Below, one piece after another: positions 6,001 through 8,881 of a stretch of DNA of 8,881 nucleotides. Origin of the DNA: a virus (Duplodnaviria; Heunggongvirae; Uroviricota; Caudoviricetes). Location of the stretch: positions 1 through 8,881 of IMG/VR virus record IMGVR_UViG_2529293214_000003; one strand, given 5' to 3'. The first letter of the stretch is position 1. Each line of letters starts with the position of its first letter. The position numbers are program-made.

Positions 6001-8881
6001 AACCCAGGTGAAACAAACATCCTGCCATCAGCAAGAATCAAGTACATACGTTCTCTGGATAGATGGAAAATCTATTGGATGCGGAAGGATATGAAATGGC
6101 ATCAGTACAGTACTGAACTTTCGCTGACTGATGCGCTTGAGCTTGTGCGTGCTGACCCGGATTGCTGCTTCTTCGGATGAGTGAAGAGACATTTGGGTGA
6201 TGGATGGTCGCAGAAGTGCGGCTTTTAATGTAATCGAAGAAAAGTAATCCTTGTAAAACTTGATTTGACTGTATTGTCACAAAGAAAGGAATCAACGATC
6301 GTTTCTTGGGTCTTGATTTGTTTTGACGATCAAATTAGTATTGCCTCATCAACTGTATGAGGCTTTTTTATGCAAACCAAAAGCTACACCATCAAAGCAT
6401 TTCAGGACTTCTTACAGATGCTTCCTGAGCTTGGTATCGTCAATGATGCTACAGCCCGCAATCTCCGTGACTCTTCCCTGCGCCTTCTTACTGTTCTTGG
6501 GTCGGATTTCACCGATGCCGATATCCGTGATTATAGCGTTGCCAACTTAGCAAGTTCGTACGCAGACTCAGCAGAAAGCAAACCCTCTGAATCATCTTTG
6601 CAGGCATACAAAAGCCGGATGCAAAGTGCTATTGATAAATTTATCTCCTACCAGAATGGTGAGATTAATGTGTCAGTTGGTGATGTAAATAAAAAAAAGG
6701 AGCGTAAAAAGATGGCACCTAAGAAGAAGGCGGTAGCTGACGTACAGGTTGGTGTAAAAACATTTGAACTGCCGATTCCATTGCGCGGAGATCTTATCGT
6801 CACCATTGGCAACCTGCCTCGCGACCTGACAAAAGATGAAGCCAAGCGTATCAGTCTGATTGTGGAATCTTTTGCGATGATTGATGGCGGAACAAAAGAA
6901 TAAAGCCCCGAGGGAACGGGGCTTTTTGGGTCGGAAATATATCCAGTATTTCCGAAGTGTATGGAGGATTACCTACCGCTACACCCTTGGCAACCGCAAG
7001 CCAAGGATAGCGGTTCTCCCAACAAACTACAACCTGTTCGGGTAAACAGGCTGTATACAAAAACAGGAGAAAAGCTATGGCTCACGATGTTAATCGCGAT
7101 GACTTCATCTACGAACACGACAAGCCGGTTTATGTGCGCAGTTACTGCCGCATACGTTTCGGTGAGCTCGAACATGTTCGTCAGCACTTCCGCTCTTATC
7201 CGAGCTGCTGAAAATAACTAAATCTCAAACCCGGCCACCGAGCCGGGTTTTCTTTGCCTTACGATCCCCCCACCTAAAAAACATAACCAATTGTATTTAT
7301 TGATGTAACTCGCTAAACCATGCAGTTATGATCCCTGCCCCATCACCTTCATCCTCAACATTTACAAAAATAAAATACCTTTGTTATCCATTATTTATAA
7401 CTTATTTACCATGAATTATAAATTAAGTTATTGACCACACCTATAACCTGGGTTATCTTTAAGCCATCAGCAGGACGCTGGTAGCCAAACGGAACAGATT
7501 GGCAGGCTCTTTAACTTCGATGTGGCGCTGACAAAGCGCAAACAGATACCAAACGAGATGGGTTTGGCGGTGATGTGAATTGCAGCAGCAACGACAGCAA
7601 CCAGAAGATCAGCATCTGGCGCATCACCACCAAAGCCATTTCACATGAGGAAAATATCATGACGGTAATCGTGTACGGGAAATCAACATTCGCAGGAAAT
7701 GCCAAAACTCGCCGTCATGAGCGGCGCAGAAAGCTGGCTATCGAGCGTGATTCCATCTGCAACATCATCGATTCGATCTTCGGCACAGACAGTGAGGAAG
7801 CTGTTCAGGAAGCCCCGAGAAAGCGTTTAAGCCTTTCTGAAAAAGCAATATCACTCGGAAGCCTTCGCTGCAAGAAGTCAAAGTCAGAAGAGGTCGAGCG
7901 TAAACAGAACCGTATTTACTACCGCAAGCCACGCAGTGAAATGGGTGTGACTTGTGTTGGTCGCCAGAAAATGAAATTAGGCAGCAAACCACTTATTTGA
8001 GAGGAATTAATATGTCATCAATCCGCTTAACTACGAGAATGAAAGAGGAAATCGCTCGTAACGCTTTAATTAAGTCCGGGGTGTTCACTGAACTTGAAGA
8101 AGTAACAAAGTTAAAGAACCAGCTTGCACTTGACGCCAGAGTTATTGCGTTTGGCGGTAAAAAGAAAACTGAGGAAGTGGATCAGTTATCATCCAAGTTG
8201 GTAGCTATAAGTGAAGAACTTGGAAAGATGGGATGTTCATTTTACTCATACGATGTTAGTTCTACTTCAATTTATCTGACTGTATCTGGCAGAAGGGTTG
8301 GATGGCATTCATATGGGAAAGACGGCAACGGCAAAGATATATTGCTCCCTACTCCGATCAAAGATAAATGCATGTTTGACGCAGAACACGAAATAACAAA
8401 AAGGTTTGATGAAATCTGCGCATTGCAACAAAAACTTGAAGCCAAGAAAAAGGATATCGAATCAAATGTATGGGCTGCTTTGAACTCAGTCACAACAGTT
8501 AAGCGACTTATTGAAGTTTGGCCTGAAAGCAAAGAATTGCTACCAAAAGAAGCAGATAAAGCAAGTACAGCACTTCCTGCTTTACGGGTAGAAGATTTGA
8601 ATAAGATGATTGGACTTCCTTCCGAGGCCGCATAGTCGGCCTTTATTTTTGGCATAAACAACAGAATAAATACTGCACTGTGTATTCATTCCAACGAGTG
8701 AATACACGGAGCAATGTCGCTCGTAACTAAACAGGAGCCGACTTGTTCTGATTATTGGAAATCTTCTTTGCCCTCCAGTGTGAGGGCCTTTTTATATGCA
8801 TACCAATAACGCTTCACTCGAGGCGTTTTTCGTTATGTATAAATAAGGAGCACACCATGCAATATGCCATTGCAGGGTGGC

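Follow-up and report, generated by a model that had tools for sequence, protein, structure and literature searches.

A candidate promoter-selective translational insulator at a mobile two-gene cassette in the immunity region of a Stx1 phage

The stretch of DNA analysed here (the window) has a length of 8,881 nt and corresponds to positions 1 to 8,881 of the IMG/VR record IMGVR_UViG_2529293214_000003 (Caudoviricetes). It is the immunity region of the Shiga toxin 1 (Stx1) phage SH2026Stx1, and its positions 5000-7300 are 100% identical to this Escherichia phage, a Traversvirus. Around the repressor gene cI, cro points away to one side, whereas cI, a DUF3024 gene, a gene encoding a protein of 177 amino acids (aa), a 44-aa open reading frame (ORF) and the PL/N region follow one another to the other side. 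The 177-aa gene region is present in just 6 of 5,426 complete Escherichia coli genomes. A hairpin stands directly in front of this gene, in the position that rexAB occupies in lambda, 3' of cI and in the same direction. Comparative sequence analysis and RNA folding suggest that it insulates a mobile two-gene cassette (a "moron") at the level of translation and in a promoter-selective way, a reading to which a probability of about 0.65 is assigned.

The start of the 177-aa gene

The features at the start of the gene are as follows. The upstream types are the distinct upstream sequences compared in the next section, and SD denotes the Shine-Dalgarno sequence.

6297 to 6300, no strand assigned: GATC site, 16 nt before the -35; its position relative to the -35 recurs in homologues
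6313 to 6318, + strand: -35 hexamer TTGATT, identical in all 12 aligned upstream types
6328 to 6331, no strand assigned: second GATC, within the spacer
6336 to 6341, + strand: -10 hexamer TAGTAT, with TAnnAT invariant at positions 1, 2, 5 and 6 and the 17-nt spacer fixed
6343 to 6349, + strand: 5' arm GCCTCAT of the hairpin, containing the anti-SD CCTC (6344-6347) within the promoter discriminator
6348, + strand: predicted transcription start, an A, the 7th nt past the -10, placed by the geometry of the -10; plausible range 6347-6349
6357 to 6363, + strand: 3' arm ATGAGGC, holding the SD GAGG (6359-6362)
6364 to 6369, + strand: T6 run, serving as terminator-like tail and as spacer between SD and ATG
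6370 to 6903, + strand: 177-aa gene (phrog_2602), whose product has an N-terminal fold of the tyrosine-recombinase core-binding-domain type, then a linker rich in Lys and, at the C terminus, a conserved motif

The two arms enclose the loop CAACTGT (6350-6356), and the ATG at 6370 follows immediately after the T6 run. The GAGG in the 3' arm is the sole SD of the gene and lies 7 nt from the ATG. An earlier, sequence-only reading had described the GCCTCAT/ATGAGGC hairpin with its TTTTTT just before the ATG, the confinement of the only SD to the 3' arm, and a candidate promoter TTGATT-N17-TAGTAT at 6313-6341; the hairpin, the SD, both hexamers and the 17-nt spacer are all present in the sequence as described.

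RNA folding of 6343-6369 gave -10.1 kcal/mol compared with -2.5 +/- 1.9 kcal/mol for shuffled sequences (z = -4.0), and 1 of 200 shuffles folded as well. By this calculation the stem is stable, as the sequence-only reading had supposed. A terminator scan picked up the hairpin at 6343-6363 with 7 pairs, 4 of them G-C, a loop of 7 nt and the tail TTTTTTATGC. It has the make-up of an intrinsic terminator (a G+C-rich stem of at least 5 bp, a loop of 3-8 nt and an adjoining U-run), with 7 bp, a loop of 7 and U6. A permissive scan of 6000-7500 with Rfam covariance models gave no relevant match at E <= 1. Short hairpins are frequent, and the window contains 22 terminator-like sites, this one among the weaker. 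That the hairpin is a functionless product of chance is nevertheless scarcely credible in view of the z-score and of a stem that is conserved with covariation down to about 49% protein identity.

The candidate promoter matches the consensus at 8 of 12 positions and shows the sigma-70 arrangement, in which the hexamers lie 17 +/- 1 bp apart and the -10 has A2 and T6. The consensus scan gave no further site scoring 8/12 or better on the + strand of 6150-6370.

Conservation of promoter, stem and geometry

Homologues were collected by tblastn, by pattern scans of viral and metagenome contigs and by look-ups of exact proteins, which together yielded about 120 loci (numbered here with the prefix L). 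A single-protein scan of genome contigs gave one locus only, and the diversity came from the viral and metagenome scans and the exact-protein look-ups. The comparison set consists of relatives of the 177-aa protein at 49-88% identity, which have 16 distinct upstream sequences.

In the conservation profile of 12 aligned types, the -35 carries 2.0 bits at each position, the -10 carries 2.0 bits at positions 1, 2, 5 and 6 and 0.79 at positions 3-4, and the spacer, 17 nt long in all of them, carries 0.98 bits. This profile supports the view that the candidate is conserved as a promoter. The stem keeps a constant relation to it, with CCTCA beginning exactly 2 nt past the -10 and the geometry fixed across the aligned types. 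With CCTC at this distance, the canonical start, which is the 7th nt and a pyrimidine-purine step, would in nearly all types be the A just 3' of the anti-SD, and the gene's own transcript is therefore predicted to be without the anti-SD. The predicted start falls on a C|A step in most promoter-bearing types.

The same geometry bears on whether the hairpin lies inside the gene's own mRNA, with a start upstream of 6343, and works as a constitutive translational damper, a thermosensor or a 5' stabiliser in the manner of the IS200 tnpA leader. Leader hairpins that sequester the SD within the own mRNA are common (IS200, PMC4513863), and Yersinia phage YP3 (L002) has a different promoter (TATAAT) 6 nt before the arm, which is perhaps partly transcribed there. 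The only conserved -10, however, ends 1 nt before the stem in the window (6341 versus 6343) and 1-2 nt before it across types, so that a start 6-8 nt further on falls inside the 5' arm. With neither a second promoter site of at least 8/12 in the interval scanned nor a match to an Rfam family, a hairpin within the own mRNA is very unlikely.

Two GATC (Dam) sites flank the -35, 31-32 bp apart, at -16/-17 and +15 from the start of the -35. The pair occurs at the same positions in L104, L108, L005, L082, L110 and L112, and the GATC at -15 to -17 is retained in 9 of the 12 upstream types despite diverged surroundings. The group of loci linked to dinI has instead a single GATC at +7, in the spacer. 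These sites suggest a promoter that may be subject to Dam/SeqA-sensitive control.

A stable stem occluding the SD (-7 to -16 kcal/mol) follows directly after the conserved promoter in 12 of the 16 upstream types. At the base of the stem the window has G-C, whereas L039, L081, L080 and L106 (Salmonella/Enterobacter group) have A-U and L047 (Yersinia pseudotuberculosis group) has U-A; the second pair, C-G in the window, is G-C in L118. The stem is preserved by G·U pairs in L033, L106, L080 and L047; because of this pairing, the structure works only in RNA of the + strand. In a plain MAFFT alignment the 3' arms of the leaders were misregistered, and this alignment gave way to one based on a covariance model with manual anchoring, the model being built from five equal-length leaders and then used to align 16. 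In this alignment 89.6% of cells are paired, compared with 83.7% in column shuffles (none of 500 reached the observed value) and 32-53% when the partner is slid, and double changes occur at three stem pairs. The pattern is supportive, not decisive, for a stem under selection that has been kept by compensatory and G·U changes.

These substitutions also weigh on a reading of the inverted repeat as a DNA operator, at which a dimeric protein would bind over the transcription start. An inverted repeat of 7 bp, its arms 7 bp apart and its centre just past the -10, would suit such a site, and the 177-aa product has a fold of the DNA-binding type. The distance between the arms is not fixed, however, the loop ranging from 3 to 16 nt across types; in four types some pairs are maintained solely as G·U, a mismatch in duplex DNA and also on the opposite strand; and the substitutions in the arms are complementary rather than identical. 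An operator is accordingly highly improbable.

The sequence-only reading had held the hairpin to be both terminator-like and occluding for the ribosome-binding site (RBS). The occlusion of the SD is conserved, whereas the T-run and with it the terminator trait are confined to the subclade of the window. The T6 run is kept in the window, L104, L108, L082 and L116, interrupted in L040 and L005, and absent in L047 (GGAACGTTCAATG) and L080 (GTGTATCATG) despite stems of 11 bp. The conservation of the U-run together with the stem that is expected of an intrinsic terminator was thus not found across homologues. Since the T-run is not conserved, the conserved property appears to be the pairing of the SD and not termination.

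The hairpin might still be chiefly an intrinsic terminator of the cI-DUF3024 operon, analogous to t_imm, with the SD in its stem only because the next gene starts at once. The stem based on G+C, the 7-nt loop and U6 pass the terminator scan, the upstream terminator of the DUF3024 gene is degenerate, the U6 tail is retained in the closest subclade, and in L102, L107 and L108 nothing else between cI and the gene resembles a terminator. The lack of a T-run in the strongest stems (L047 and L080) and the interrupted runs of L040 and L005 speak against this explanation, as do the covariation, which concerns pairing to the SD, and the fixed distance of 2 nt between arm and -10, which termination does not need. 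The hairpin is therefore unlikely to be chiefly a terminator, and termination is compatible with the insulator as a second lock.

The distribution of terminators further upstream fits a role of the hairpin in insulation. Strong canonical terminators are situated between the upstream gene and the promoter in the hairpin-less loci L109/L110, L112, L049, L003 (Sakai) and L004 (Oslo), of which the L109/L110 and L112 clade has 56-59% protein identity; in L113, which is also hairpin-less, the upstream gene is divergent. In the hairpin-bearing types the upstream terminator is absent or degenerate, and most of these loci have a co-oriented cI/DUF3024 or dinI gene 147-225 nt upstream without a strong terminator. 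This complementarity of hairpin and upstream terminator agrees with insulation as the putative function.

Long and short leaders were then compared by folding. In the long leader of the window the mean probability that the SD is unpaired is 0.0003. With 100-120 nt of upstream RNA, the pairing probability of the SD is about 1 in 9 of 10 types tested; the lone exception is L005, which has a degraded stem and an unpaired probability of 0.07-0.33. The background consists of 155 ORF starts that have an SD, taken from the fetched loci and including members of the gene family itself, and 9% of them have a mean unpaired probability of the SD of 0.01 or less. The short leader, beginning at the predicted start, forms weak structures only, no better than shuffles. 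The opening energy, defined as the cost of forcing -15 to +13 open, is 12.2 kcal/mol for the long and 6.5 kcal/mol for the short leader of the window (difference 5.7), and the fall from long to short averages 5.8 kcal/mol over the 16 types (range 0 to 11.6). The short-leader value of the window lies at the 15th percentile of the background starts. In L047, L118, L081 and L106 the opening barrier is within the top few per cent of the background. The contrast that the sequence-only reading had drawn, with the RBS closed in a read-through leader and open in a transcript from the own promoter, agrees with these calculations in that the SD is paired in long leaders and the opening cost is lower in short ones.

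In distant relatives (L052-L067 and L086-L094, 35-42% identity) a GATC-rich inverted repeat of 13 bp, GGATTCATCGATC...GATCGATGAATCC, precedes the gene by about 40-90 nt. Its 3' arm includes the -35 (TTGATC) of a TTGATC-N17-TAAACT promoter, which is another overlap of hairpin and promoter.

The cassette and its neighbours in the immunity region

The other features of the region are as follows.

5094 to 5801, + strand: cI-type repressor gene (Pfam Peptidase_S24 2.7e-17 and HTH_3), source of co-directional transcription from PRM/PRE
5839 to 6180, + strand: DUF3024 gene (Pfam DUF3024 2.4e-31; PADLOC PDC-S43 7e-42)
6206 to 6223, + strand: degenerate terminator hairpin at the end of the DUF3024 cassette, GGTCGCAGAAGTGCGGCT followed by TTTAATG; -9.8 kcal/mol, with 3 U only
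6902 to 6925, no strand assigned: GC-rich hairpin where the 177-aa gene ends, interpreted as a bidirectional terminator
7077 to 7211, + strand: 44-aa ORF (phrog_21154), MAHDVNRDDFIYEHDKPVYVRSYCRIRFGELEHVRQHFRSYPSC, about 170 bp downstream of the 177-aa gene
7227 to 7250, + strand: terminator at the right edge of the cassette, from the terminator scan; blastn blocks end at 7251-7269

As delimited by blastn blocks, the cassette is about 1 kb long (approximately 6251/6280-7262) and contains, in order, the promoter, the hairpin, the 177-aa gene, a terminator, the 44-aa ORF and a second terminator. For the hairpin at 6902-6925 the terminator scan lists the - strand only, and on the + strand a T run adjoins. 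An ORF of 44-45 aa is present at the same position in most of the relatives looked up, in every context, and the 177-aa gene and the 44-aa ORF appear to make up a single mobile cassette. The RBS of the 44-aa ORF is preceded by a hairpin of 12 bp (7028-7055).

The cassette is located directly after different cI genes in L102, L107, L108 and L111. In Salmonella, Enterobacter and Citrobacter (L105, L114 and L119-124) it follows dinI at a prophage end close to pepN, and it also occurs in a Yersinia phage. Having its own promoter and terminator and a mosaic occurrence in unrelated contexts, it behaves as a moron. No family for the 177-aa or the 44-aa protein was found in Pfam, NCBIfam or PADLOC, and both proteins match only PHROGs of unknown function.

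Two systems of the Gifsy prophages were considered and set aside. The IsrK-orf45-anrP locus of Gifsy-1 (PMC4825925), considered for the 45-aa ORF, is a different locus, in which orf45 overlaps anrP, and no Rfam match to IsrK was obtained. The SOS operon dinI-antirepressor-irsA (PMC3121763), considered for the dinI-linked Salmonella loci, was not equated with them because the gap of 147 nt is too small for an antirepressor and the locus is found where the prophage ends, close to pepN.

On the + strand the genes follow in the order cI, DUF3024 gene, 177-aa gene, 44-aa ORF, PL (about 7431), N (7659-8000) and a gene for an Nmad5 protein. The - strand carries, in order, a DnaB-type helicase gene with an apparent LAGLIDADG intein, the gene of an O-like protein, cII and cro. 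Translated from the ATG at 5094, cI encodes 235 aa with HTH_3 and Peptidase_S24 domains, whereas the RefSeq coding sequence begins at the equivalent of 5232 and the helix-turn-helix domain is cut off. The DUF3024 gene, directly 3' of cI in a rexAB-like position, matches the PADLOC candidate defence family PDC-S43 (at the E value listed above) and is a pseudogene in VT2-Sakai (L003, 2020-2340). It belongs to a separate cassette (about 5802-6226), which is shared with VT2-Sakai (a blastn block, 82% to Sakai) and is distinct from that of the 177-aa gene; its terminator hairpin has a complete T-run in the Sakai and Oslo phages. The helicase ORF (720-3113, - strand) encodes a protein of 797 aa in which the GMGK Walker A motif is followed by an inserted LAGLIDADG homing-endonuclease domain, and apparently contains an intein; the helicase is annotated at 458 aa in the SH2026Stx1 record. 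The Nmad5 protein (nucleotide modification associated domain 5; 207 aa; Pfam 3e-71) is encoded at 8012-8635 (+ strand), directly 3' of N.

Proposed insulation from the repressor operon and its parallels

From these features we infer a start site, upstream read-through, partial termination and a translational effect as follows. Transcripts of cI-DUF3024 from PRM/PRE would carry both arms of the hairpin, the anti-SD CCUC would pair with the SD GAGG, and the loading of ribosomes would be blocked. In the variant of this phage, the G+C-based stem and U6 probably also end part of the read-through just before the AUG. The sigma-70 promoter of the gene itself has the anti-SD in its discriminator, and transcripts from it would begin at about A6348, would be without the 5' arm and would present an accessible SD on a 22-nt leader. 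That the hairpin makes expression depend on the gene's own promoter had been the central suggestion of the sequence-only reading, and this insulation model is supported by the conservation of the promoter, the covariation of the stem and the fixed promoter-stem geometry.

Several points weigh against it. For every family member the support consists of comparative sequence and folding predictions. The 8/12 sites in the window number 37, compared with about 45 expected by chance, and the promoter is not above chance in a single sequence; the consensus scan alone is unable to validate it, and its reality rests on conservation among homologues. The alignment that shows the covariation had been fitted to the structure, and its sequences are few (n = 16) and related. 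The stem is degraded in L116, L005 and L117 and absent in the L110/L112 clade, and the complementarity of hairpins and upstream terminators rests on few, non-independent lineages. The short leader is not fully open, since a weak alternative helix covers the SD and AUG (unpaired probability of the SD 0.21). The 12.2 kcal/mol of the long leader of the window reaches only the 74th percentile of the 155 background starts (mean 9.7, standard deviation 3.2). As modelled, the barrier at the RBS of the window phage would be real but moderate, and confidence in the insulation model was lowered because the hairpin is only a moderate barrier against the local background.

The mechanism as such is already known from phage T4 and IS10, and by analogy the 177-aa cassette would be a further case. 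As outlined in PMC3014915, which cites McPheeters 1986, long early transcripts of the T4 genes e, soc, 49 and I-TevI form an inhibitory helix over the SD/AUG and are untranslated, whereas a late promoter in the DNA for the 5' strand of the helix gives transcripts that lack the helix and are translated; the location of the promoter within the 5' arm is likewise conserved among T4-type phages. In T4, temporal control in lytic growth relies on gp55-dependent late promoters (TATAAATA), whereas the promoter here is of the sigma-70 type in a temperate immunity region and the competing transcription is that of the lysogenic repressor operon. The hairpin described here also bears a terminator-like U-run, and there is no sequence homology.

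Tn10/IS10 guards against external promoters through RNA structure over the translation start in read-through RNA (Davis, Simons & Kleckner 1985, Cell 43:379, pmid 2416461), as summarized in PMC13181058. By that summary, IS10 resembles the present cassette in being a mobile element that shields its gene from outside transcription and leaves its own promoter unaffected. The cargo of IS10 is a transposase, whereas that of the cassette is a phage accessory gene with no antisense RNA evident. The IS10 promoter pIN starts within the fold-back and is Dam-sensitive. GATC sites recur in the present promoter too.

The left end of IS200 has a terminator against impinging transcription and a stem-loop upstream of the gene that sequesters the SD (PMC4513863). 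The terminator and the stem-loop are separate hairpins, and the latter is situated in the element's own 5' untranslated region, which results in constitutive damping; here, by contrast, a single hairpin would do both jobs and is predicted to be absent from the own transcript. Phage morons are defined as independent transcription units, each headed by a promoter and closed by a terminator, that are inserted between conserved phage genes (PMC3594210). This definition is without a translational lock against read-through, and such a lock would be an extra feature of the present cassette. No report of an RBS-occlusion device in lambdoid morons was found in a limited literature search.

A broader proposal is tentative and rather doubtful. 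It holds that the cassette is a self-insulating portable unit, which the anti-SD in the promoter discriminator renders blind in translation to any operon in front of it, that the hairpin is lost after a strong upstream terminator is gained, and that this is a general rule by which morons remain autonomous; insulation may further combine with gating by Dam/SeqA, exerted at the two GATC sites on either side of the -35, which are about 31 bp apart. With such gating, expression of the cassette would be tied to the methylation or replication state of the prophage.

If the insulation model is correct, the uncharacterised pair of the 177-aa gene, encoding a fold like the integrase core-binding domain, and the 44-aa ORF would be under a control separate from cI. 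Expression of the 177-aa gene could not be deduced from RNA coverage alone, since in lysogens the read-through RNA from PRM would cover the gene without yielding the protein, a point that matters for the reading of Stx prophage transcriptomes. The promoter with its embedded anti-SD would constitute a compact natural part of about 60 bp for context-independent expression. Accessory cassettes of temperate phages could then carry a translational firewall of their own, and a device of T4 late genes and insertion sequences would be extended to lambdoid morons.

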